Assembly: GCA_965240325.2 (NCBI GenBank)
Contig: OZ251228.1
Location: forward strand, 1,364,001-1,428,000
From: Rebecca billardiae RCC1528
Lineage: Eukaryota; Protista; Haptophyta
Length of the DNA stretch: 64,000 nt
Direction of reading: 5' to 3'
Shown: positions 13,525 through 63,442 of the stretch, in pieces
How positions within the stretch are numbered: the stretch's first letter is position 1
Layout: each line of letters begins with the position of its first letter
Notes under the pieces: generated by a model
Seen by the model: the letters and a program-made list of their open reading frames with translations, nothing else
The model's database searches: none
Told to the model about the DNA's origin: nothing
Program-made: the position numbers and the translations under genes

Positions 13525-14922
13525 ATGGCCGCGCATCACGACAACTCGACCGAGAAGGTGAACATCCTTGGCCTCCCGTACCCCGACGAAAGTGACGAAG
13601 GATCTGAAGAAGACCAAGACAGTGGCGAGCGATCCGATCTCGGTGACGACCGCTCTGACGACCTGCGCCCAACCGTCCACGAGGAGAGCGCCATTCTCCA
13701 TGACAGCGCCGTCGACGCGTACCCGGACACGGACGCGCAGTTCGACGGCGGCGCCGTCGACGCGTACCCGGACACGGACGCGCAGTTCGACGGCGGCGCC
13801 GTCGACGCGTACCCGGACACGGACGCGCAGTTCGACGGCGGCGCCGTCGACGCGTACCCGGACACGGACGCGCAGTTTGACGGCGGCGGCGCGACAAGTG
13901 CGCATGCTGCGACAGCTGCCGGCGCGCAACAAGCCGCGCCCACATCCGCGAGTGCGGACCCGGCTGCATCTGCTGCGCCGCCCGTGGCGCAAGGCTGGCA
14001 GCCACCCGCCTGGTCGCACCCTCCAATCATGCTCCCTGCCGCCGCCGTGGAGGAGTGGGTGGGCGGTGTGTTCGCGCGCTCGATGCCGCTCGCCGAGCGA
14101 AAGGCGCTCGTGCTCGGCCGGCACGGGGGCATGGCCGACGTGGTCGTCGCCGACCCGTCCGTCTCGCGCGCGCACGCCGCTGTCATCTGCACCGCCGAAG
14201 CCGTCTTCGCGCACGACTTGGCCTCGGCGCACGGCTCGATGGTCGAGCGCGCCGGCAGCGCGCCGCTGCGCCTTGAGCCCAGCTCGGCGCCACAGCAGCT
14301 GCGCGAGGGAGACGTGCTGCGCGTCGGGCAGAGCTCGCACGCGTTCCGCGTCGTCGGCCTCAGCCCGCGCGAGGTCGAGCGCTTCCAGGTGCCCGCGTGG
14401 GCCTCCCTCCCGCGCGGGCAGCCTTCACTCGAGGTGCTGGAAACTTCCAAGAAGGCCAACCCGTACTTGGAGCACCTCGGCGGCTCGGCAGGCGTGGCGG
14501 AGGTGATCCCGATCCACGACAAGCGGTGCTACGTGCTCGGGCGCAACGCGCATTTCTGCGACATCGTCGTGCGCCACGAGTCCGTGTCCCGGCAGCATGC
14601 GGCGATCGTGCACGACGACGACTGCACGTACGTCATTGACTGTGGCTCGGCGACCGGCACGTTCCTCAACAACGAGGACTGCCGGCCACACAAGGCTGAG
14701 AGGATGACGGATGGGATGATGCTCTCGCTCGGTGGCGCGCCGATCACTTACACGCTGCGGCGGGGAGCTCCAGCGGCATCGGGTGCTGGTAAGCGCACCA
14801 CAGCGACCACGCCCGCGCAGGGTGGAGCAGGAGCTGAGGGCGAGGCGGCCCACCCGCCGACCTCTGCGCGGCCGGATCCCAGCGGCGTCGATCCACCCAA
14901 GCGGCGGCGGATGCTAGCCTAA
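13525..14922 (+). CDS. Tandem FHA-domain protein (NIPP1/kanadaptin-like)
   Basis: Two FHA signatures (LGR...SVSRAHA...DLASAHGS and LGR...SVSRQHA...DCGSATGTFLN), each preceded by a P-P/A-W motif; acidic N-terminus; C-terminal NLS-like PPKRRR. Confidence 0.85.
   Translation: MAAHHDNSTEKVNILGLPYPDESDEGSEEDQDSGERSDLGDDRSDDLRPTVHEESAILHDSAVDAYPDTDAQFDGGAVDAYPDTDAQFDGGAVDAYPDTDAQFDGGAVDAYPDTDAQFDGGGATSAHAATAAGAQQAAPTSASADPAASAAPPVAQGWQPPAWSHPPIMLPAAAVEEWVGGVFARSMPLAERKALVLGRHGGMADVVVADPSVSRAHAAVICTAEAVFAHDLASAHGSMVERAGSAPLRLEPSSAPQQLREGDVLRVGQSSHAFRVVGLSPREVERFQVPAWASLPRGQPSLEVLETSKKANPYLEHLGGSAGVAEVIPIHDKRCYVLGRNAHFCDIVVRHESVSRQHAAIVHDDDCTYVIDCGSATGTFLNNEDCRPHKAERMTDGMMLSLGGAPITYTLRRGAPAASGAGKRTTATTPAQGGAGAEGEAAHPPTSARPDPSGVDPPKRRRMLA
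13708..13887 (+). repeat. Coding minisatellite, 4 x 45 bp (AVDAYPDTDAQFDGG)
   Basis: Four near-perfect copies; the only visible difference is TTC to TTT in copy 4. Confidence 0.95.
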
Positions 14923-17285: not shown

Positions 17286-18587
17286 CTAAGACTTGCCCTT
17301 GCTGCCCTCTTTCCGAATCGCATAGACGCCGGCGATGTCGCCGTGCTTCGTGAAGCCCGCGTACACCACCGGGTACGCCTCGAGCACCGCGTCGGCGTCC
17401 GACTCGGCGTCGGCGCCGCTGAAGAAGAAGCTGTCGGCCAGGCTGGTGTGGAAGAGGGCGGCGATCCGCACGTCCTGCGCATGGCGCGGCCTGGCGTCAG
17501 GCGTCGCGCAGAGCATGCGCTCGCGGTGCGCGTCGTCCACGGGCAGCCTCGTCGCGCGCGCGCGCGCGTGCGCCGGCAGCCGCAGCCGCTGCTGCAGGAA
17601 GCTCGCCACATCTTCGAGTGAGCGGCTGCGCAGCTCGCCCTCGTGCACATATGCGCTGAACGCTGTGAGCTCGCTGTCCACGGCGGAGCGCTCGATGTGC
17701 TCGGCCATCGAGGCGAGCGTGGTGAGCTGGATCGCGATCGTCTGCATGAGCTTCACGCGCGCGTTGTCGTGCCCCTCGTGCTTCACCCCGTCGGGCCAGT
17801 GCCCGCAGTTCCACCGCTGGAGCGCAAAGTGGTCCGGCCCTCCGTCGGCGCTCGCCCAGTGCAGGTAGAGAGGCGTGCGCGTGTCGTCGGCGTTGACGCG
17901 CTCGGTGTTCTTCCACGCGCGGCACTCGGCGCCTGGCGGGCGCGACTCGAGCGCAAACACCTCGCCCGTCTCGACCCCTTCCGCCTCCGCCGCCGCCGCC
18001 GCTGGAGCCTCGGCCGCGGGTGGCGGCTGCAGCTCAATCAGCGTGAGCCGAGTGCGGAATGCGGAGCACAGCTCAAAGTCGGCGCTCATCGAGGCGGCGA
18101 TGTCGCTCGCGCGCACGCCCTGCGCGTTCGTCTTGAGCCGCTCGCGATTGGACATCTCGAGCACCTCGGTCAGGACGTACTCGACCACCGCCGTGGCCAT
18201 CGCCGCGCACGGCAGGTCGCACTCGCGCCCAAAGTCCAGTACGCGCTGCCGCGTCATCGGCACGCTCATCACGAGGCGTGCGGCGGTCGTGACCATGCTG
18301 TCGTTCAGAGCCTCCTCGGGTATGCGGTCCAGGCTCGCCGCTGCCCGGCGCATCTCGCCCAGTGCGTGCGCGCCGAGCTTGCCCGGGAGGAGGTCACCTG
18401 TGACTGACTGCAGTCCCCCGCGGGTGACGGGCGCCTCCGGCGGAGCGCACTCGGCGAGCTCGCGGACGACCACCACGCCAATCTCGCACAGAATCTTCAT
18501 TGCTGCGACCGACAGCCCAGCCTGGTCGGACGCCAGCTGCGTCCACACCTTGTAGATGTCACGGTCGAGCGTCGCGACCTCGGCCAT
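17286..18587 (-). CDS. Fused H2B-H2A doublet histone-fold protein with uncharacterised C-terminal domain
   Basis: H2B-like DIYKVWTQL..GLSVAAMKIL...LQSVTGDLLPGKLGAHALGE followed by H2A-like ARLVMSV...AVVEYVLTEVLEMS...VRASDIAASMSADFEL; 433 aa, intronless. Confidence 0.75.
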   Translation of the reverse strand: MAEVATLDRDIYKVWTQLASDQAGLSVAAMKILCEIGVVVVRELAECAPPEAPVTRGGLQSVTGDLLPGKLGAHALGEMRRAAASLDRIPEEALNDSMVTTAARLVMSVPMTRQRVLDFGRECDLPCAAMATAVVEYVLTEVLEMSNRERLKTNAQGVRASDIAASMSADFELCSAFRTRLTLIELQPPPAAEAPAAAAAEAEGVETGEVFALESRPPGAECRAWKNTERVNADDTRTPLYLHWASADGGPDHFALQRWNCGHWPDGVKHEGHDNARVKLMQTIAIQLTTLASMAEHIERSAVDSELTAFSAYVHEGELRSRSLEDVASFLQQRLRLPAHARARATRLPVDDAHRERMLCATPDARPRHAQDVRIAALFHTSLADSFFFSGADAESDADAVLEAYPVVYAGFTKHGDIAGVYAIRKEGSKGKS

Positions 18588-18828
18588 GGCTCGCGGGCGC
18601 GATCAGGAATCGCGTGGCCGCAATTACGAGATTCCAGGTTCGTTGTCGTCTGTCATCGTTGGGCACTGGGCAGCCATCGTGCACGCGATTCGACGCAGCA
18701 GAGGAGCAGAGCCGTGGCACTGTGGTGAGCAGCCGCAAGGGACCGCCTTGACGTGCGTGGTGCGTCGGCTGTCGCGAGCGAGCGCGCTCGGCGTCAGCGC
18801 GCTGCTCTGTGGGGAGCGGGGCGGGCAC

Positions 18829-20118
18829 ATGGCCGTTGGCTTCAGCGCATACCCCAGCCAGACCCGATGGCAGCGCGCCGTGCAGTGGCTCCGGGCCAAC
18901 CGCGCGTGCGTCGTGTGCGCGCTGCTGGGCGCAGCAGTCGGCGTCTTCTTCGAGCGCTCGAGCACGCCCCTGTGCCCGCCCGACGCGGCGTGCATCTTCG
19001 GCCCGCCCGGGGCCGAGCCCTACGTCGAGTTTGCCGAGGTGCCCGGCACGTGGGCCGTGTACGACGTGCAGCGCAAGCTGCATGAGACGCAGAGCGCGTA
19101 CCAGACCATCGCGGTGTACGACACCTACTTCCATGGCCGCATCCTCACCATCGACGGCGCGCTGATGATCACGGAGCGGGACGAGCGCAACTACCACGAG
19201 ATGCTGGCGCACGTGCCGCTCAACTACCTCCCGGCCGCGAAGCGCGTGCTCGTCATCGGCGGCGGCGACGGCGGCACGGTCACGCAGGTGGTGCGCCACT
19301 CGAACCTGGCGAGCGTGAGCTGGGTCGAGATCGACGAGCAGGTGGTGAAGACTTCGCGCAAGTACTTCACGCGGGTGAGCGCCGGTCTGGACGACCCGCG
19401 CGTCAAGCTCGTCGTGCGCAACGCCGCGCACTGGGTCGCCGAGCAGCGCTACACCGCCACGCGCGACGCGCCGGCCGGCGGCGCGTCCGCCGCGGGCGGC
19501 GAGGACGACGAGATTCGATACGACGTCGTCCTGATCGACTCGACCGACTTCAACCAGGCGGAGCCGCTGTTCACGCCGGACTTCTACGCGGGCGTGAAGG
19601 CGCTCATGCGGCCCACCTCGATCCTCTGCTTCAACCTCGACTCGCCACAGTGGGGCCAGGTCCGGCTCGTGCAGTTTGCAGACCGGCTCTCAGCGCTCTT
19701 TACCCACGTCTATGTGTACCAGGTGTTCCAGCCCACGTACTCGTCCGGGCACTACGCGTTCCTCTTCGCGTCGGACAGCGTGCATCCGACGCAGACGGCG
19801 GTGGACTGGGGCGCGTGGCTCTCGAAGAACATCGAGACGCGGTACTACACGCCCGACGTGCACTACGCGGCGTTCATGCTGCCGGCGCAGGTGAGGGGCG
19901 TGCTCCGCAGCGCGCCGCTCGCGCTCGCCGACGTGGCGCCTCGCGGCAGCCAGGGCTTTGCGCCCGCGCAGGGCGAGGAGGACGGTGCACCCGTGCGGAC
20001 CGCGGGGGGCGCGGCTGGCGTCGACGGCTCTGCTCGGGCGGAGACGACGCAGCGGGCGGCAGGCGCTCCGGCGGGCACGGTGTCGCCGTCCTCCTCCTCA
20101 GAGCTGCGCCGTGTATGA
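18829..20118 (+). CDS. Spermidine synthase-family aminopropyltransferase with N-terminal hydrophobic segment
   Basis: SAYQTI, ILTIDG..ITERDE..YHEMLAH, VLVIGGGDGGT, VEID, LIDSTD, YYTPDVHYAAF; ATG at 18829 preferred. Confidence 0.92.
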   Translation: MAVGFSAYPSQTRWQRAVQWLRANRACVVCALLGAAVGVFFERSSTPLCPPDAACIFGPPGAEPYVEFAEVPGTWAVYDVQRKLHETQSAYQTIAVYDTYFHGRILTIDGALMITERDERNYHEMLAHVPLNYLPAAKRVLVIGGGDGGTVTQVVRHSNLASVSWVEIDEQVVKTSRKYFTRVSAGLDDPRVKLVVRNAAHWVAEQRYTATRDAPAGGASAAGGEDDEIRYDVVLIDSTDFNQAEPLFTPDFYAGVKALMRPTSILCFNLDSPQWGQVRLVQFADRLSALFTHVYVYQVFQPTYSSGHYAFLFASDSVHPTQTAVDWGAWLSKNIETRYYTPDVHYAAFMLPAQVRGVLRSAPLALADVAPRGSQGFAPAQGEEDGAPVRTAGGAAGVDGSARAETTQRAAGAPAGTVSPSSSSELRRV

Positions 20119-32613: not shown

Positions 32614-33732
32614 TCATCGGAGCAAAAGTATATGATCGCCGATGTCGGGAAGCGGAAGCAACAAGCAAGCCGCCACCGCCAGCTTGTTCCCGCGCTCGAC
32701 CGCGTTCGGCAACACATTCTCCAACCACAGCTGCTGCATAGCGCCTGCGCACACGCCGCCAAACCGCTCTTCCTTGGCCAGTTCGTACCCCAGCAGCAAT
32801 AGCTCCACAGCGCGGGCGCGCGCGGGCGGAGGGAAGAGATGGTGGGTCTTTGGGCTCCACGGGCCGGCCGCCGCCACCACGGCCGCCGCCGCGCCATGGT
32901 GTGGGTCGGTTGCGAGCGTGGCGCGGGCTAGATCGAGGGGCGACGAGTTGCCTTCGGCGCTGAGGGCGTAGGGGTCGGTGAGCGCACGCAGCTGTGCCAC
33001 CGCCTCCGCCTCGGTCAGCAGCTCGACGTGGTGCAGGGCTGTGTGCCAGCGCGATGTGCGCGCGAGCCATCCAGAGAACTTGCGTGCGCCCGAGTGCCAG
33101 CACTGCCTGGCCGTCATACGCGCCATAACTCGGCAAGTGAGATCGGACGAGCGCAGCCCGCGCAGCGCTTGTGCCTTGCATAGCAGCTGAACCACCTGCA
33201 GAAGCTCATCAGCGGGCTTGTCGTCGGTGCGGCCCTGGGCCTGTGTGGTCGTCGCCAGTAACAGCAGGTCCCCATAGGGGTCATGATCAAGAGCAATGTC
33301 GATGTCTGCACGTGCGTCGAGGAGCAGCCGCACGCACGGCACGCTCAGATTCCGCACGGCGAGGCCGAGGGGCGTAGGGTGGTCTTCACCGCCAACGTGG
33401 CTGATGTCGTTCGAGAAGGCATCCACGTCAGCGCCCGCCTCCAGGAGGAGCCGTGCGCACACCGCCTGGTTGCGGGCACATGCTACATGGAGGGCGGTCA
33501 GACCGCGGTTAGGCATCGTGTCCTTGATCTTGATCTGCGAGTCAGCGCCCGCCTCGAGAAGCAGCCGCACAAGCTCAGCTTGTCCGTCGGCGCATGCGCA
33601 TATGAGGGCGGTCAGACCGCTTGCAGTGTGGCGGTCGAGATCGACGCCCAGTGCCAGCAGGGCACGTACTTGGTCCGCATCACCGAGCGTGGACGCGTTG
33701 GCCAGCTCGTCGATCGATTTCTCGCTCGTCAT
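32614..33732 (-). CDS. Ankyrin-repeat protein with conserved family-specific C-terminal domain
   Basis: GLTALICAC, GLTALHVAC, TPLGLAV ankyrin repeats; C-terminal ALHHVELL...PWSPKTHHLFP..ARARAVELLLLGYEL shared with 62288-63442. Confidence 0.85.
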   Translation of the reverse strand: MTSEKSIDELANASTLGDADQVRALLALGVDLDRHTASGLTALICACADGQAELVRLLLEAGADSQIKIKDTMPNRGLTALHVACARNQAVCARLLLEAGADVDAFSNDISHVGGEDHPTPLGLAVRNLSVPCVRLLLDARADIDIALDHDPYGDLLLLATTTQAQGRTDDKPADELLQVVQLLCKAQALRGLRSSDLTCRVMARMTARQCWHSGARKFSGWLARTSRWHTALHHVELLTEAEAVAQLRALTDPYALSAEGNSSPLDLARATLATDPHHGAAAAVVAAAGPWSPKTHHLFPPPARARAVELLLLGYELAKEERFGGVCAGAMQQLWLENVLPNAVERGNKLAVAACLLLPLPDIGDHILLLR

Positions 33733-33931
33733 TGCCTCGGGGAGCAGCGCTGCTCGACACGCGTTGCGGGAGCGCTCCAGGGCCTTCCGCCAATCCGCCA
33801 CGCTTTTGGCGGGCGGAAGCTTTGCGGTCCTTGGCGCCTTCGGGCGCGCGGCGGCCCCCGAGAACCGGACTGCAGTGGTACAGTAAGGCACTGAAGAACT
33901 CTGGTTCACTGCGAGCTGTGGCGCCGGGCTA

Positions 33932-34000
33932 CAGTTTACTAAGAATACTGAGTAAGACGCACACAGCTCAGCCTCAGGCAGGCGAGATCGACGCCCGCCA
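33932..34000. mobile_element. Diverged solo Tc1/mariner-type TIR
   Basis: TA|CAGTTTACTAAGAATA...GACGCACACAGCTCAG..CAGGCAGGCGAGATCGACGCCCGCCA. Confidence 0.7.
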
Positions 34001-34531
34001 CGCGACCCGCCCTTGTGATGTAGTAGTAACATACTAAACTACTGCTAGCTAAATTATGCTACTATATATATAGTGCCTTCCCGGACCGCCCGCCCGGCCC
34101 GGACCGCTGCTGTGCCGCCCTCTGCTTGAGTCTTAGGACGCAGTATTGATACTGACGTAGCCGTAAGGCGTAAGCCGTCGTAGGTGGTGCTCAGTAGCCA
34201 CACGCGGCACACGCGACACACGGGCACGGTGTCTCACGCCTCACGGTCAGCCGCCCGCCGCGGCCGTCGCCGTCGGCTGGGCCCGGGACGGTCCGGCGGG
34301 ACGAGCCGACACTCGACAGCACTGCCGGCAACCCCTGCAGGACGCTGCCACCACGGATGGGCACCGGCTCAGACGCCATGGGGTAGCGGCCAGAGAGCCT
34401 GAGTGTGCGCGGGGGGGAAGCAACCCGCACGCGGCCCGCGCGCCAGCGGCTGCCTGCGGCCGATCACTCGAGCCTCTCGTGATGCAGCACAACGGCAACG
34501 CGCGCGCCGAGGTCCGCGCTTGAGAACACCT

Positions 34532-42943: not shown

Positions 42944-45900
42944 TGTCAGGGAACGCGTCTCGAGGCTTGACGGTCGCGAGGTCGGTCGACGGCTTCGGCT
43001 CTTATTTGCGGTGGAGAGCACAGCTAGTTCGTGGTGCTCGGCTCATGTTTCCGCGTTCATTCAGAATCATCTGGAATACTTCGAGATGCCGCCGCCAGCC
43101 ATGCTGTCCTGCTGTATTTTAGGATGAGGTTCAGGTTGATTTTGGAGGATTCTGTGCGAGCGCCGCCGCAGCGGTCGCGCCGCCACTGTGTGACTGCGAG
43201 TAAAATGTTGGATTGGAAATTGGAAATCACTGTAGATTGGCGATTCCTTTGACACCCCCCCTCAATCCAATATGCGCTCGTCTGTGAGGACTAAGCTTGG
43301 ATTATGAGTGATTTTGGGCTTGGTATTGTTTGTGCATCTGTGTGCATGAGTGAATTGGAGTCAGTAATGGTTGCCAATGCCAGGATACGGGTCATGTGCT
43401 GGGACTTCCGTGTGACGGTTTTGAGTAACCCGAGTCAGTCCTGGGCTTATTTGCACCATATGTTCACTCTTTGGCCTTGATTTTGGACCTTGTTATTGGG
43501 TCATGCCCTGCCTTGATAGTTAATCATAGGCATCCGGAGCAGGAATATCCAGGAAATGGATACGCTCCTTGGGGAATTTGTTGGCTCCCTTGTTTTTGCC
43601 TTTGTTGTAATTGTTGGCCTTGGGGCGTAGCTCTGGGTGGAGCTTCCAACACTGCTGGGCAGTATGGTTCTTGAGACCACAGTGAGTGCACCGTTTGCCG
43701 GTGTCCGAGTTATTCGGCCCGCTCTCGCCATTGGCTGGAGCCTTTTGGGCCTGAGCGGCGAAGACTTCGGCGCCCTCAAAGTCACCGCGTCGCCGCGTGC
43801 CTTGCTGATAATCAGCATTTTGGCGTATCTTGGAATAATTTTCGGTCTCTCTCCCCTTGGTATTGTTCTGATGGAGTAGCTTCATTGAGCCGTGCCGTTT
43901 GTAGGCATCTTCCATCTGGGCCATTATCTGGTCAGTGTTATCCACACATTGCTCGGGCGTGAGCGCTCCGAAGTGCGAGATAACTGACTCGTAGACTTGG
44001 GGATGGTCGTGCATGCTGTTATACAGCTTGAAGACCAACATCGTAGCATCGTCCAGATTCCCATATCGAGATGAGCGGACTTGCTCGACGGATTTCTTGA
44101 TAATGTCCGATGCGCCAATGGGCGACACCTTTGTCGGGTATAACTTCAGGAATTCATCCCTGAGTTCGGACATAGTTGTGATCTTGAGCTCGCGCTCAAA
44201 TATCTGTAGCAGCAGCGCCAGATCCAAGTAGTTCTTGGTCGGATCGCTGATGTGCAGCTTCGATTCCAGATAGGCGAATAACTGAGGCTCAATAGAGTCC
44301 TTCAGCTGCTTGAATATCGCTGCCGCAGATCGATCGTAGACCGATCCGATCTTGTTGGCGTCAGCGTTGTCAGCCTTGTATGGATCGATTTTGGCTGCGT
44401 CTTTCACCCATTTGTCTTTGGCAATGAGTTGAAAGCCGGATAGCTTGCTATCCTTGGGCTCCATTATGTCAGGTGTGACATCTGAGGATTTGCCCTTGTA
44501 GTAGGTGCTCACTTCTGCGAGTGCATCCCGTATCGCGCTGTGTACCGCGCGCTTGGATTTCAGAGCCGACTGTGTCAGCTTGTGTGTGGCGGGTGTATCC
44601 ACTCCTGCCGAAGATTCGCGTGCCATGAACACACGTTCCTTCTTGGTTGGATTAGAGTCTGTGACTCCTCCTTCGATGACTATCCAGTCACGTTTCTTCG
44701 ACTCAAGTGCATTGGTCGATGTGTCGCGCGCGCTCTGTGGCGATTCGCGCTCTACCTTCGAGCGAGGAGTGACCCTCGTCGAGGCTGTGGTGCCTTCTTT
44801 GGGCTTCTTCACGCTCGTTCTGTCCAGCGGTGATGCATGTGCATCCGCGGCAGCTTCGGCGGAATACTCTTCCTTGCAAGAGTGTGGCGTTGTGATGGCT
44901 GACGCAGCTGATGCATGCGCACGCGCGTCGCGCTCGCCAACTTGGTTTTGCTGCGGCTTTGCCGTCAAGCAGGTGTATGATGCCCCCCCTGCATCGCATG
45001 CGCTTCCTACGTTCGACGCGAGTCGATACGTGCCAGACGAGGACTCTGCCGTCTCTGCGGCGGTCATCTCGCGGCTGCTTGTGTCGCTCGTGGCGAGCAG
45101 CTCGGCTTCGGAAGCCATCGTGAGTCTGGTAATTTTGGGGTAAACGTATTTGTTTGGGTCAGGCGCATCAACAATAAATGCGGCCGCTGACTTAATGCTT
45201 GAGTTCGCTGTGACAGAGTCACGCGTCGTCGCATCTTGGAGCATAGTTTGCTCTGCCAGACCATACAGGTCGTTTGAGTCGCACTCATCGGTGCTAACAA
45301 GGTCATCGTTCGATCGGTCAGACTCAGACACAGAGTCGTGCGAGCGAGGCTGCAGACTGACTGCGGTCACGACCGCGCTGTCATTGGCGGCGGCCAGAAG
45401 GCCAGCACGCCGAGCAGCGTTGGCAGGCTCGAGGGCCTCGACGGTCGGAGCGGCATCAGCGGCAGCAGCGTCGAGCGCTACATCTGCCCCGGAACGCTCG
45501 GTGACCTCGTTCGATGACTCGGAGGCCGCAAGGCACTCCTTGAGCTGCGGGCTCTCAGCCGCGCGCTCTTGAACCGCGCTCGCGGGCGCAGAGTCCCGGG
45601 CGGTAGTTGTTGAGATCCCCTGCGCAACGACGTGCGTGCGGATGGAGTGGCGCGATGGCGGGGGATGCGAGCGGCAACGCTCCTCCTCACCGCGCTGTGC
45701 GCGAACCTCCTCCTCAAGGTGATCCTTGATGTCGGCTCGAGGCCTTGCGTGCGATGCAGCATTGCGCGCATACGACACGATGCTGCCTGAGTTCAGGTCA
45801 GCGATGTTGCCAGGCCCGGAGGCGCTGGAGATGGGCTTGCGGAGAAGCGTGAGCTTCTCGCCTTGCCGGTTCTTCTCAGCCTGCATGCCCCTCAGGGCAG

Positions 45901-46400
45901 CCGCGAGGTAGTCTGGCGTGCGCTTGCGCGCAACCGCCGATGAGCCGCGCGGCATTGCCGCGCGCTCGGCCACGCCTGGCTTCAACCCAATGAGGGGAGC
46001 AACTGGGGCGGGCTGACGGCCGTTCACGTCCTTGCCGCTGTTCTCGTCGTCTCCATCCTTGCCCAAGTTCTCCCAGCACCGAGCTAGCATGTCAGGGAAC
46101 GCGTCTCGAGGCTTGACGGTCGCGAGGTCGGTCGACGGCTTCGGCTCTTATTTGCGGTGGAGAGCACAGCTAGTTCGTGGTGCTCGGCTCATGTTTCCGC
46201 GTTCATTCAGAATCATCTGGAATACTTCGAGATGCCGCCGCCAGCCATGCTGTCCTGCTGTATTTTAGGATGAGGTTCAGGTTGATTTTGGAGGATTCTG
46301 TGCGAGCGCCGCCGCAGCGGTCGCGCCGCCACTGTGTGACTGCGAGTAAAATGTTGGATTGGAAATTGGAAATCACTGTAGATTGGCGATTCCTTTGACA
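42944..46400 (-). mobile_element. Non-autonomous gag-only LTR retrotransposon (copia-like)
   Basis: 311-bp TG...CA LTRs at 42944-43254 and 46090-46400, apparently identical; 5-bp TSD TCGTC; PPT TTGAGGGGGGG next to the 3' LTR on the minus strand. Confidence 0.93.
43520..46090 (-). CDS. Gag-like protein with CCHC zinc knuckle, no pol
   Basis: 856-aa ORF with CTHCGLKNHTAQQCWKLHPELRP; no RT, RNase H or integrase motifs. The true start is uncertain. Confidence 0.8.
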   Translation of the reverse strand: MLARCWENLGKDGDDENSGKDVNGRQPAPVAPLIGLKPGVAERAAMPRGSSAVARKRTPDYLAAALRGMQAEKNRQGEKLTLLRKPISSASGPGNIADLNSGSIVSYARNAASHARPRADIKDHLEEEVRAQRGEEERCRSHPPPSRHSIRTHVVAQGISTTTARDSAPASAVQERAAESPQLKECLAASESSNEVTERSGADVALDAAAADAAPTVEALEPANAARRAGLLAAANDSAVVTAVSLQPRSHDSVSESDRSNDDLVSTDECDSNDLYGLAEQTMLQDATTRDSVTANSSIKSAAAFIVDAPDPNKYVYPKITRLTMASEAELLATSDTSSREMTAAETAESSSGTYRLASNVGSACDAGGASYTCLTAKPQQNQVGERDARAHASAASAITTPHSCKEEYSAEAAADAHASPLDRTSVKKPKEGTTASTRVTPRSKVERESPQSARDTSTNALESKKRDWIVIEGGVTDSNPTKKERVFMARESSAGVDTPATHKLTQSALKSKRAVHSAIRDALAEVSTYYKGKSSDVTPDIMEPKDSKLSGFQLIAKDKWVKDAAKIDPYKADNADANKIGSVYDRSAAAIFKQLKDSIEPQLFAYLESKLHISDPTKNYLDLALLLQIFERELKITTMSELRDEFLKLYPTKVSPIGASDIIKKSVEQVRSSRYGNLDDATMLVFKLYNSMHDHPQVYESVISHFGALTPEQCVDNTDQIMAQMEDAYKRHGSMKLLHQNNTKGRETENYSKIRQNADYQQGTRRRGDFEGAEVFAAQAQKAPANGESGPNNSDTGKRCTHCGLKNHTAQQCWKLHPELRPKANNYNKGKNKGANKFPKERIHFLDIPAPDAYD

Positions 46401-53431: not shown

Positions 53432-56400
53432 ATGACACCACTCGCCCGCGTGGCGCTCGTGCTGCTGGCGCCGCTCGCCGTGCCCCTAGGCGCTCGCGGC
53501 GCGTCCGTCCCGCCGTGCTCGGGGTCGGAGGTCGAGCTCGACATCGAGGCGAGCAACGAGCAGGAGGACAACATCGAGGCAAACGGCGTGGGCAGCATCA
53601 CGCTTGCGCAGATCGGTGCGGACGGGGGGGGCAATGATGTGACGCTCGTGATCACCACGGTGGGCGCGTACACCCGGCCGGCCGGAGAAGATGCCGGCAA
53701 GCTCGATGTTCTCGTGGCCCCCAACCCGACATTGAACTACGTCATCATCCCGCAGCAGATCGGCACGCAGGTCCGGCTGCGGCTGGAGTTCTTCGACCAG
53801 TTTTCAGGCGCGCCAGTGGTGCTGTCCGGCTTCTCGTTCTCGGCCGTAGACATCGATGGCGACACGGTCTCAGGCGACGAGGTGTACGACTACATGTGCG
53901 TGCACGACTTGGCGAGCAACGGCGGCGCATACGCGCTGTCAGGCGCAGGCACAGACCTCGAGGCAATCGAGGTGACTGGCGGCACCGGTGGCCGAGCAGG
54001 GGGGTTATGCGCCGCAGGTGACACGTACATCGGCGCGCAGACCGCCTCCAACCATAACTCCGACTTCGGCACCTACCCGCCCGCCGGCGTTGACGACATG
54101 AAGTATGCAGCCAGGCTGACCTACTCCTCGCCTCCCACGTCGTCGGTGGAGATCACGCTAGGCTCAACGTGCGAGCCGAATTGCGACAACACCGGCGGAG
54201 GGAATCGCGCTCCTGTCTTGACAGGCTTCCTCTTGGTCGAGGGGGCCTGCCCGCCGCCATCGCCGCCCGCCCCGCCGTCGTTGTGTGATCTCAACGAGAT
54301 CGCAGATGGCGTGCCGCTTCCGCCAGGCGTTCTGTCTTTCGCCGGCCCGCATGCCAACATCACGCTCGCGTGCGACAACGGCGCGGGCAACTTCACGTGC
54401 TCGAACGACGACGATGGCAACTTCGAGGCGTGTGTGCCGCACGGCGGTGGTGACGGGGCGTTCGTGCAGGCTGGCGTTGTGTGCACCTCCTGGTGCGTGG
54501 ACAGCCCCGAGACCCAGATGCAGCTGTATCCGCCGACCACTGTCACGGTGGATGACTGCGGGACGCCTGGCAATCCAACCTTCACGTTGAACCCCGCATC
54601 AGGTGAAGCCTTCCCGTGCGCGCCGTACCCACCGTCCCCGCCGCCCTCCCCGCCGCCCTCCCCGCCGCCCTCGCCACCTCCGTCGCCACCGCCGAGCCCG
54701 CCTCCGTCGCCGACTCCGTCGCCACCGCCATCGCCACCGCCGCCTCCGTCGCCACCGCCGAGCCCGCCACCCTCGCCGCCTCCGTTGCCACCGCCACCGC
54801 CGCCTCCGCCTCCGTCGCCACCGCCGAGCCCGCCGCCCTCGCCGCCTCCGCCGCCCTCGCCGCCGCCCTCGCCGCCTCCGCCGCCAGCGCCGCCACCGTC
54901 ACCACCGCCGAGCCCGCCGCCCTTGCCGCCTCCGTCGCCACCGCCATCGCCACCGCCGCCTCCGTCGCCACCGCCGAGCCCGCCGCCCTCGCCGCCTCCG
55001 TCGCCACCGCCATCGCCACCGCCGCCTCCGTCGCCACCGCCGAGCCCGCCGCCCTCACCGCCTCCGTCGCCACCGCCGAGCCCGCCACCCTCGCCGCCTC
55101 CGCCGCCACCGCCATCGCCCTCGCCACCTCCGTTGCCACCGTCGCCACCGCCGAGCCCGCCGCCCTCGCCACCTCCGTCGCCACCGTCGCCACCGCCGAG
55201 CCCGCCGCCCTTGCCGCCTCCGTCGCCACCGCCATCGCCACCGCCGCCTCCGTCGCCACCACCGAGCCCGCCGCCCTCACCGCCTCCGTCGCCACCGCCA
55301 TCGCCACCGCCGCCCTCGCCGCCGCCGCCCTTGCCGCCGCCCTCGCCACCTCCGTCGCCACCGCCATCGCCACTGCCGTCGCCACCGCCCTCGCCACCGC
55401 CACCGCCGAGCCCACCGCCCTCGCCGCCTCCATCGCCACCGCCGTTGCCACCGCCGCCTCCGTCGCCACCGCCGAGCCCGCCGCCCTCGCCGCCTCCGTC
55501 GCCACCGCCATCGCCACCGCCGGCTCCATCGCCACCGCCGAGCCCGCCGCCCTCGCCGCCTCCGTCGCCACCGCCGCCGCCCTCGCCGCCTCCGTCGCCG
55601 CCGCCACCCGCGCCGCCTCCGCCACCGCCGCCCTCGCCGCCGCCCTCGCCGCCACCGCCAGCGCCTCCTCCACTGCCGCCTCCGTCGCCACCGCCGAGCC
55701 CGCCGCCCTCGCCGCCTCCGTCGTCACCGCCACCCACGCCGCCTCCGCCACCGCCGCCCTCGCCGCCGCCCTCGCCGCCGCCGCCAGCGCCTCCTCCGCC
55801 GCCACCTCCCTCACCACCGCCGAGCCCGCCGCCTTTGGCGCCTCCGCCACCCTTGCCGCCCTCGACGCCCTCGCCGCCACCGCCACAGCCGAGCCCGCCG
55901 CCCTCGCCGCCTCCGTCGCTGCCGCCGCCGCCCTCGCCGCCTTCGTCGCCGCCGCCGCCATCGCCGTCGCCGCCGCCACCTCCCTCGCCACCGCCGCCGC
56001 CGCCATCGCCGCCACCGCAGGCAATCTGTGGTGCCACTTGCTTCTTTGTGGTACGCGCCACTCTGCCCGCACGGCCGCGTCGCAGTGCTTCCGCCTGGTA
56101 CCGCCTGCGCGCTCTCACCCGCGCCGTGCGATCGCGGCCATGGGCTGTGGCGGGCGTTATCACGCGCTCGGCCTACAGCCATACCAACAACAGTCAACAC
56201 ACCCGCGCCCATCATCCACTTCGCGCCCCGCTGACTGCGATGCCACTACTGTCTGCCTGCCTGCCTGTGCCCTGCTGCTGCGGCGCGCGCTGCCGTGCGC
56301 CTCGCCACCAGGCTGTCTTCTCGGGGCGCCGGCTGATCAAGCACGCGCTGTGCAGACTGCACGGCGGTTGCGCGGACCAGCCATCGTCGCTCCTCGGCAG

Positions 56401-56593
56401 CCGACAGCTCGCCGCGTCGGCGATGGGCGACGATGACGACGTGGAGGGCGCGATGGCGACGGCTGCTGCGGCGGCTGCCGCGGCGGCTTGGATCGCGCTG
56501 ACGGCGGCAGCGGTCGTGTCCGCCGTCGTCATTGCGAGGCGGAGGTGGAGCCGCCAGCGCAATCCAGCACCCGCTGCTCCTCTGGCAGCTTAG
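53432..56593 (+). CDS. Extensin/pherophorin-like type I membrane protein with a long Ser-Pro stalk; probable in-frame intron 56051-56311
   Basis: Signal peptide, Cys-containing globular region, about 460 aa of SPPP repeats, Cys motif, hydrophobic TM segment followed by RRRW. Confidence 0.8.
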   Translation: MTPLARVALVLLAPLAVPLGARGASVPPCSGSEVELDIEASNEQEDNIEANGVGSITLAQIGADGGGNDVTLVITTVGAYTRPAGEDAGKLDVLVAPNPTLNYVIIPQQIGTQVRLRLEFFDQFSGAPVVLSGFSFSAVDIDGDTVSGDEVYDYMCVHDLASNGGAYALSGAGTDLEAIEVTGGTGGRAGGLCAAGDTYIGAQTASNHNSDFGTYPPAGVDDMKYAARLTYSSPPTSSVEITLGSTCEPNCDNTGGGNRAPVLTGFLLVEGACPPPSPPAPPSLCDLNEIADGVPLPPGVLSFAGPHANITLACDNGAGNFTCSNDDDGNFEACVPHGGGDGAFVQAGVVCTSWCVDSPETQMQLYPPTTVTVDDCGTPGNPTFTLNPASGEAFPCAPYPPSPPPSPPPSPPPSPPPSPPPSPPPSPTPSPPPSPPPPPSPPPSPPPSPPPLPPPPPPPPPSPPPSPPPSPPPPPSPPPSPPPPPAPPPSPPPSPPPLPPPSPPPSPPPPPSPPPSPPPSPPPSPPPSPPPPPSPPPSPPPSPPPSPPPSPPPSPPPPPPPSPSPPPLPPSPPPSPPPSPPPSPPSPPPSPPPLPPPSPPPSPPPPPSPPPSPPPSPPPSPPPSPPPPSPPPPLPPPSPPPSPPPSPLPSPPPSPPPPPSPPPSPPPSPPPLPPPPPSPPPSPPPSPPPSPPPSPPPAPSPPPSPPPSPPPSPPPPPSPPPSPPPPAPPPPPPPSPPPSPPPPAPPPLPPPSPPPSPPPSPPPSSPPPTPPPPPPPSPPPSPPPPAPPPPPPPSPPPSPPPLAPPPPLPPSTPSPPPPQPSPPPSPPPSLPPPPSPPSSPPPPSPSPPPPPSPPPPPPSPPPQAICGATCFFVVRATLPARPRRSASAWYRLRALTRAVRSRPWAVAGVITRSAYSHTNNSQHTRAHHPLRAPLTAMPLLSACLPVPCCCGARCRAPRHQAVFSGRRLIKHALCRLHGGCADQPSSLLGSRQLAASAMGDDDDVEGAMATAAAAAAAAAWIALTAAAVVSAVVIARRRWSRQRNPAPAAPLAA
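54630..56017 (+). repeat. Coding (CCG/TCG)-rich Ser-Pro repeat array
   Basis: Continuous SPPP/PPPS codons. Confidence 0.95.
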
Positions 56594-62287: not shown

Positions 62288-63442
62288 CTAGCGCTCGACG
62301 GCGTTGGGCAGCACGTGCCCGACCCACACATCCTGCAGCGCCGCCTCCTCGCCTACAAAGACACCCTCGTCCGACAGCTCGTACCCCAGCATCAGCAGCT
62401 CCACGGCGCGCGCGCGCGCGAGGTGGGAGAAGAGGCGGTGCGTCTGTGGTGACCACGGGCGGCTTGCTGCCACGACCGCGCTTGCGGCTCCGTGCCACGG
62501 GTCGTGCAGGAGCGCATCTGAGGCGAGTGACAAGGGCGTGGGCACGCCGGCGTAGAGATCGGCGCCCGCGCGGAGCTCCTCCACCGCCTCCGCCTCGCTG
62601 AGCAGCTCGACGTGGTGCAGCCGCGTCGTCCAGAGCGCGGCGCGCGCCAGCCAGTCAGACACGGCGTTGGCGCCGCGCTCCTCCCGCAGCTGTGCGGCGA
62701 GTGACCAGCGGCTGGTGGGGTGGCGGGGTGGGAGGCCGATCGAAGCGCCGCGCACGCACAGGAGCTGCACCACAGCCAGCTTCTCCTCCTCGTCCGTGTA
62801 GTCATCCGACTGCACCGCAGCCTGAAGCGGAGACACCTTCCTGCGGAGGGGCCGGAGGGGCGTCGATGCGCCCACGTCTGCGCCAGCGGCGATCAGCAGC
62901 TGTGCGCACACGGCCTGGCCGAGCAGGCACGCGGCGTGGAGTGCGGTGCACCCGTCGTGCAGGACGGCCTCGAGTCGCGCTCCCGCCTCGATCATCAGCT
63001 GCACACACGCCGCGTGGCCTCGGAAGCACGCCAAGTGAAGCGCGGTGATACCGAGCTGTGTCGCTGCGTCCACGTCCGCGCCCTCGGCAATCAGCAGCTG
63101 CACGCATGCGACGTGGCCCGTCTGGCACGCCAGCTGGAGCGCGGTGTATCCGCCGGGCGTGACGACATCCACGCCCGCACCCGCCGCGATGAGCGCCTCC
63201 GCGCACGCGGCGTGGCCGAGAAAACACGCGATGTGGAGCGCGGAGCGACCGTCATGCGCCTTGAAGTCGACGCCGACACCTGCGTCGACGAGGGGCTGGA
63301 CACACGCGGCTTGGCCCGCCTCAGCGGCGGAGCGGAGAGCGGCGCCGAGCGTGCCGGCCCCGTACGCCCCCACCTCGATCAGCTCCTTGGCGCGTTCAGC
63401 GTCTCCGTCTGCGCACGCGGCGGCAAGTTCGGCTCCGGCCAT
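62288..63442 (-). CDS. Ankyrin-repeat protein, paralog of 32614-33732
   Basis: About six ankyrin repeats (GRSALHIAC, GYTALQLAC, GITALHLAC, GCTALHAAC) plus the shared C-terminal domain. Confidence 0.88.
   Translation of the reverse strand: MAGAELAAACADGDAERAKELIEVGAYGAGTLGAALRSAAEAGQAACVQPLVDAGVGVDFKAHDGRSALHIACFLGHAACAEALIAAGAGVDVVTPGGYTALQLACQTGHVACVQLLIAEGADVDAATQLGITALHLACFRGHAACVQLMIEAGARLEAVLHDGCTALHAACLLGQAVCAQLLIAAGADVGASTPLRPLRRKVSPLQAAVQSDDYTDEEEKLAVVQLLCVRGASIGLPPRHPTSRWSLAAQLREERGANAVSDWLARAALWTTRLHHVELLSEAEAVEELRAGADLYAGVPTPLSLASDALLHDPWHGAASAVVAASRPWSPQTHRLFSHLARARAVELLMLGYELSDEGVFVGEEAALQDVWVGHVLPNAVER

Follow-up and report, generated by a model that had tools for sequence, protein, structure and literature searches.

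NuiA of Nostoc/Anabaena sp. PCC 7120 (PF07924; 2O3B chain B, 1J57) is a bacterial protein that binds the catalytic Mg of the nuclease NucA through its C-terminal Thr (PMC5587815, PMC2790893). This Thr ended 103 of the 106 NuiA ORFs that we collected, many of which are closely related. A second signature residue, E24, which we take to enter the nuclease active site, was kept in 105 of 107 rows, and S23 next to it in 106 of 107. A eukaryotic NuiA fold is also known in NuiA_2 (PF23151, largely fungal). In the literature that we surveyed, Drosophila EndoGI stood alone among eukaryotic proteins in inhibiting nucleases of the EndoG/NucA class; it is mostly nuclear but has a helical fold unrelated to that of NuiA and no histone domain (PMC2790893).

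Histones fused into one chain have been described in cells and in viruses. The SOS histone domain (1Q9C) and the ABTB2-type proteins carry an N-terminal H2B-then-H2A pseudodimer in a eukaryotic multidomain protein, joined to a Ras GEF and to ankyrin/BTB domains, respectively. Both have low identity to histones, and the DNA-binding charge has been lost in SOS. The Marseilleviridae doublet (Melbournevirus, 7N8N chain B) has the same order of folds, and viral doublets wrap DNA together with an H4-H3 doublet. The excerpted text of a 2026 review counts few families of cellular fused pairs, mostly animal or opisthokont (SOS, ABTB2, SPT3, HSIH), and its table of cellular double histone folds, as excerpted, holds neither a NuiA fusion nor a protist family like the one described below (PMC13088155). 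A 2022 review treats fused doublets as unconfirmed among eukaryotic histones (PMC9145170), and PMC11222145 covers viral histone repeats. Literature searches linking NuiA with histones, or naming the gene ids of the Chromera relative, found nothing relevant; those on haptophyte H2B-H2A doublets returned a virus review alone, those on acidic-patch histone-mimic nuclease decoys nothing, and those on a fungal nuclease A inhibitor PR-1 papers only. The gene reported here joins the two known folds in a conserved architecture that is real and apparently undescribed.

The gene lies in a GC-rich 64-kb stretch of Rebecca billardiae DNA (64,000 nucleotides, the window) and consists of a single ORF (Table 1). 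Its start codon has a GCC-ATG-G context. GC3 is 0.76–1.00 across all 18 blocks of the ORF (≤25 codons each), so the whole frame has the look of coding sequence, with no intron required. An intron within the GC-repeat stretch (aa 335–372) or near the 3′ end was considered and rejected, as GC3 there is 0.92–0.96 and, for the GC-repeat stretch, relatives align across it. Splicing that would regain a terminal Thr was also rejected, as there is no GT or GC donor between R425 and G428. An identical 433-aa protein is encoded on a Logan contig, which possibly derives from the same reads. The two segments quoted in the initial annotation are both real and fall within this frame, LASMAEHIERSAVDSELTAF at aa 291–310 and AYPVVYAGFTKHGDIAGVYAIRKE at aa 404–427. 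The protein does not, as had been thought, end at the hairpin motif: GSKGKS comes after AYPVVYAGFTKHGDIAGVYAIRKE.

Table 1. Features of the histone doublet–NuiA-fold gene (positions in the window).
Feature	Position	Strand	Basis or content
Whole gene, single ORF, 433 aa	17286..18587	-	H2B-H2A doublet, linker, Cys/His cap and NuiA-fold domain
H2B-like histone fold, aa ~8-88, without N-terminal tail	18324..18566	-	phmmer and fused-protein profile
H2A-like histone fold, aa ~100-183	18039..18290	-	phmmer, profile and structure comparison
Pro/Ala/Glu flexible linker, aa ~184-219	17931..18038	-	pLDDT <50 over aa 189-215; sequence not conserved
Conserved cap, aa ~220-276 (~55 aa)	17760..17930	-	C222, C261, H270, H273
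NuiA-fold domain, aa 277-428	17304..17759	-	VIA and Foldseek on the predicted model
S-A-V-D-S-E-L, aa 301-307	17667..17687	-	Counterpart of NuiA S23-E24-S25-E26; Ala302 at the E24 position
Gly428 at the NuiA Thr135 position, 5-residue tail and stop codon	17286..17306	-	Alignments, VIA

The flanking genes encode a methyltransferase, a spermidine synthase, a double-FHA protein, a dynein heavy chain, a triosephosphate isomerase, an RFC subunit and a TAF9-like protein, all ordinary eukaryotic types. The doublet gene and the spermidine synthase gene stand head to head (18587–18829) with ~240 bases between their likely start codons, and they possibly share a promoter. The N-terminal part of the double-FHA protein (13525–14922, plus strand) contains a 14-aa acidic repeat, present four times. 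A nuclease gene lies within the 1.5-kb flanks of 74 of the 106 bacterial NuiA loci, whereas none is near this gene: no NucA-like nuclease was found among 1141 frames of the window (best E=0.12). Within the 64 kb, neither a paralogue nor the organism's own EndoG was found, and none of 24 window frames scanned encodes an H3-H4 doublet. Elsewhere in the window, an 856-aa ORF (43520–46090, minus strand) in a low-GC block (0.57–0.59 over 42–46 kb) has no Pfam match, carries a C-x2-C-x4-H-x4-C knuckle close to its end and looks like a retrotransposon gag. Two ankyrin-repeat proteins (32614–34032 and 62288–63442, both minus strand) form a paralogous family with a similar ~120-aa C-terminal region that has no Pfam match. 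A long Ser-Pro-Pro-Pro repeat ORF (53432–56593, plus strand) has a signal-like start, a strong GC skew of -0.36 at 54–56 kb and no Pfam match within its first 423 aa.

The C-terminal part of the protein is predicted to have the alpha/beta fold of NuiA. We modelled aa 213–433 with AlphaFold from an 11-row alignment (pLDDT 70.6, pTM 0.73, with the first 54 residues below 50). In a Foldseek comparison of this model with the PDB, the top match was NuiA in its complex with NucA (2o3b_B, E=1e-5, prob 1.00). It was the sole match at E≤0.001, and free NuiA came second. VIA aligned model residues 65–216 (aa 277–428) with residues 1–135 of 2o3b_B, and so over the whole NuiA chain (Z 10.5, rmsd 3.4, 125 aligned); the next unrelated fold among the 1000 chains aligned reached Z 3.5. 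The initial annotation had likened a region of ~220 aa to NuiA, and this stands for aa 277–428, while aa 220–276 form a separate Cys/His cap. Atlas features also rank NuiA-containing clusters first (0.80, a lead only). Independently, the homologue P0013 scored 0.92 by features to a cluster in which 40% of members are NuiA and 21% NuiA_2, and had a TM of 0.63–0.65 to a NuiA cluster. The former cluster is the nearest to P0013 in the Atlas by features, and its representative, at 155 aa, leaves no room for a histone doublet.

Sequence alone did not link the family to NuiA. Identity between the domain and NuiA is 12–14%. The Pfam profiles NuiA and NuiA_2 (PF07924, PF23151) matched none of the 11 aligned family members, and neither Pfam searches with the protein and its pieces nor a PDB sequence search with the C-terminal part gave a match. 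Our own NuiA HMM gave E=1.4 for this domain, with a best E of 0.033 within a 12-sequence search. Profile–profile comparison with NuiA (hhalign: probability 5%, P=0.008, score 21.1) was not above chance, as five or more of 100 block-shuffled controls outscored it. Proof of kinship with NuiA by sequence alone therefore failed, no profile method having reached significance. The terminal hairpin does resemble NuiA 114–127, as first noticed, but this motif by itself does not exceed chance. Thus, we consider the resemblance to NuiA real because of the structure comparisons by Foldseek and VIA, and not because of the hairpin. The domain is predicted to have a NuiA fold that lies, by profile, outside PF07924 and PF23151; a fold in common with NuiA shows no function.

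The N-terminal part carries two histone folds in one chain, H2B-like and then H2A-like. A phmmer search of PDB sequences found 7n8n_B, the Melbournevirus doublet and best single-sequence match (E=4.9e-4), and 4m6b_A (E=8.2e-4). A profile of four fused proteins matched H2B chains over positions 11–88, single-chain H2B-H2A with a best E of 6.8e-20, and the SOS histone domain with E=4.6e-7, and residues ~8–183 are colinear with H2B and then H2A. The full-length model (pLDDT 70.9, pTM 0.51) matched H2B-H2A chains, SOS (1q9c) and NuiA, with TM by target of about 0.7 for single-chain H2B-H2A and 0.67 for NuiA. The low pTM together with the disordered linker suggests two loosely tethered modules. The fusion is real and not an artefact of a gene model, as it lies in one open frame and recurs in three other clusters.

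The doublets of the four fused proteins have net charges of -5, -12, -8 and -6 and no tails, and the basic DNA-binding surface and tails of nucleosomal H2A/H2B or of viral doublets are absent in all four. By our by-eye reading of the alignment, most basic residues in the loops H2B L2 and H2A L1/L2 have been substituted. Being acidic and tailless, the doublet is therefore unlikely to wrap DNA, unlike the viral doublets, from which it also differs in being nuclear-encoded. Residues at positions that we presume to be those of the acidic patch (human numbering, mapped by eye onto the alignments) are retained in the H2A-like fold (E136, E141, E144, D170 and E172). Asp or Glu fills 29 of 32 cells (8 positions in four fused proteins) even though the doublets are only 15–30% identical to one another, an uncontrolled count that includes some residues with a structural role as well. 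Of the eight positions, two carry no acid in this copy, which has K70 and F171 there.

The cap between linker and NuiA-fold domain has no counterpart in NuiA and was modelled with low confidence. Its Cys and His residues are conserved: C261, H270 and H273 in all eight rows that have a residue there, and C222 in six of six. Our guess is that they form a candidate metal site.

The fusion also occurs in distant protists. A phmmer search of 1.84 billion representatives gave nine at E≤0.001, and a profile search added two, to make 11 clusters. Three of these share the doublet fusion: Chromera velia Cvel_3729, which also has a transcriptome record; a protein of Abeoforma whisleri, truncated before the end of the domain; and a Logan protein. 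Two others, P0004 and P0011, start with Met and have the cap and NuiA fold without a histone doublet, and the remaining six are short sequences, possibly fragments. In a tree of ten domains, from which P0010 and P0017 were omitted as too short, the four fused proteins formed one group (support 91/95, slightly under the tool's starred threshold; 1 of 500 shuffles was as low). Neither an unrelated fold nor a lack of homologues with the terminal motif was thus encountered.

The word-index protein searches were lossy (the profile search above recovered 3 of 11 input rows besides the two new sequences; two others returned the query only), so their blanks show little. Lossy DNA scans gave 43 and 6 candidate stretches in viral contigs and 88 and 126 in metagenome contigs, none of them confirmed as a relative, and a further lossy scan, run without a positive control, found none in 301 cyanobacterial genomes. 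The viral structure library gave no match at E≤0.001. The idea of a host–virus conflict module thus gained nothing, as neither the viral contigs nor the viral structure library, within what these lossy scans cover, held a relative. Among cyanobacterial sequences, we observed five frames of 290–450 aa with a divergent NuiA-like domain and a second NuiA-like stretch, and these tandem proteins end in Thr, Ser or Gly.

The relatives keep the two signature positions of NuiA, and this copy does not. All ten homologue clusters with a complete end (11 rows, two of them from one cluster) stop exactly 8 residues past the last conserved Gly, at the same place as NuiA, and end in Thr in nine cases and Ser in one. 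The E24 column, in a register taken from a forced joint alignment, holds Asp or Glu in eight of the nine homologues that cover it, within an S-[DE]-x-[DE] loop like that of NuiA. P0011 has Gly in this column and the terminal Ser. In the protein described here, a free C-terminal Thr able to bridge the metal is absent, Gly428 being followed by SKGKS, and Ala302 replaces the acid at the S23-E24 position. S301, D304, E306, E427 (at the position of NuiA E134) and the terminal hairpin are kept. With its terminal Thr lost, this copy is likely a disarmed binder and not a full inhibitor. The original suggestion of a nuclease inhibitor that protects chromatin is accordingly weaker for this copy, which has neither a terminal Thr nor an acidic residue at the Glu24 position and whose doublet is tailless and net acidic.

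What might such a protein do? Our best explanation as a whole, held tentatively and at a little under an even chance, is a family of NuiA-fold inhibitors tethered to histone pairs, of which this copy has been disarmed. Intact relatives would, if only just on the probable side, use the carboxylate of their terminal Thr to block the metal site of an EndoG/NucA-type nuclease. The doublet is likely to act as a nucleosome-like bait or address. It might, though this is somewhat less than an even prospect, bind proteins through the retained acidic-patch surface, without wrapping DNA, and so bring the inhibitor to them. Candidate partners would be histone chaperones and nucleosome-docking enzymes, including those of an invader or a death nuclease. 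In this copy the canonical metal bridge has very probably been lost. Most of the inhibition has probably gone with it, as this copy drifted towards a role with weak blocking or none.

A more specific version, 'bait and block', is possible but doubtful. Here, protists of distant supergroups would have in common a protein whose fake H2A-H2B dimer shows the acidic patch of the nucleosome and lures chromatin-docking nucleases to the tethered, bacterial-type NuiA plug, with the cap as a metal-binding Cys/His sensor and with an EndoG-like death nuclease or an invader's enzyme as the targets.

It is unlikely that this copy has retained inhibition, either because the rest of a NuiA-type interface suffices or because the target has altered along with the end of the protein. 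The fold, the hairpin and the acids and Ser listed above are kept, the core is 44% identical to that of Chromera, and NuiA competes with DNA across a broad site (PMC5758888). However, both signature positions, conserved in ten of ten and eight of nine relatives, are altered here, and the last 150 residues, with a net charge of -3, are the least acidic among the nine family members scored (NuiA, -12).

We regard as distinctly unlikely that the NuiA fold is a general protein-binding module for a non-nuclease target (for example, another metalloenzyme), with the doublet serving autoinhibition or as a scaffold, as in SOS. The low identity to NuiA, the family-specific Cys/His cap and the lack of a nuclease neighbour would fit such a role. 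The SOS H2B-H2A pair, which is among our structural matches as 1q9c, works without binding nucleic acid (PMC13088155). Against this, the relatives share with NuiA both the S-[DE]-x-[DE] motif and the exact register of the terminal Thr, which would be difficult to account for if no comparable metal-capping contact were made.

A true chromatin component, comparable to macroH2A, would join host H3-H4 in nucleosomes and keep the inhibitor at the chromatin, to protect DNA against EndoG-type nucleases, which we think improbable. Both histone folds are complete, in the order found in nucleosome-forming viral doublets (PMC9145170), the H2A alpha-C segment is retained, and no signal peptide is evident in the 433-aa sequence. 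Nevertheless, all four doublets are net negative and tailless, the basic loop residues are mostly replaced, and the doublets are mutually only 15–30% identical, far under the level that working histones keep.

Finally, decay of this copy into a relic under relaxed selection would fit its long branch (1.08, compared to 0.2 for Chromera), the lowest doublet identities of the four (15–25%) and the loss of both signature residues, but is very improbable given the intact 433-codon frame, its uniformly high GC3 and the retention of all four cap Cys and His residues and the hairpin.

To return to the reading of a family of tethered inhibitors with one disarmed member, its interest lies in the combination. 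A histone doublet that has been conserved in four organisms, among them an alveolate and an ichthyosporean, is joined to a fold known to block NucA-type nucleases. The family is thus a directly testable candidate for the restraint of EndoG/NucA-type nucleases in protists, and it offers a natural control, in that intact copies with the terminal Thr can be set against this copy without it. Should 'bait and block' prove true, the family would provide the first case of chromatin mimicry linked to a NuiA-type nuclease inhibitor, with the present gene as a naturally disarmed variant.
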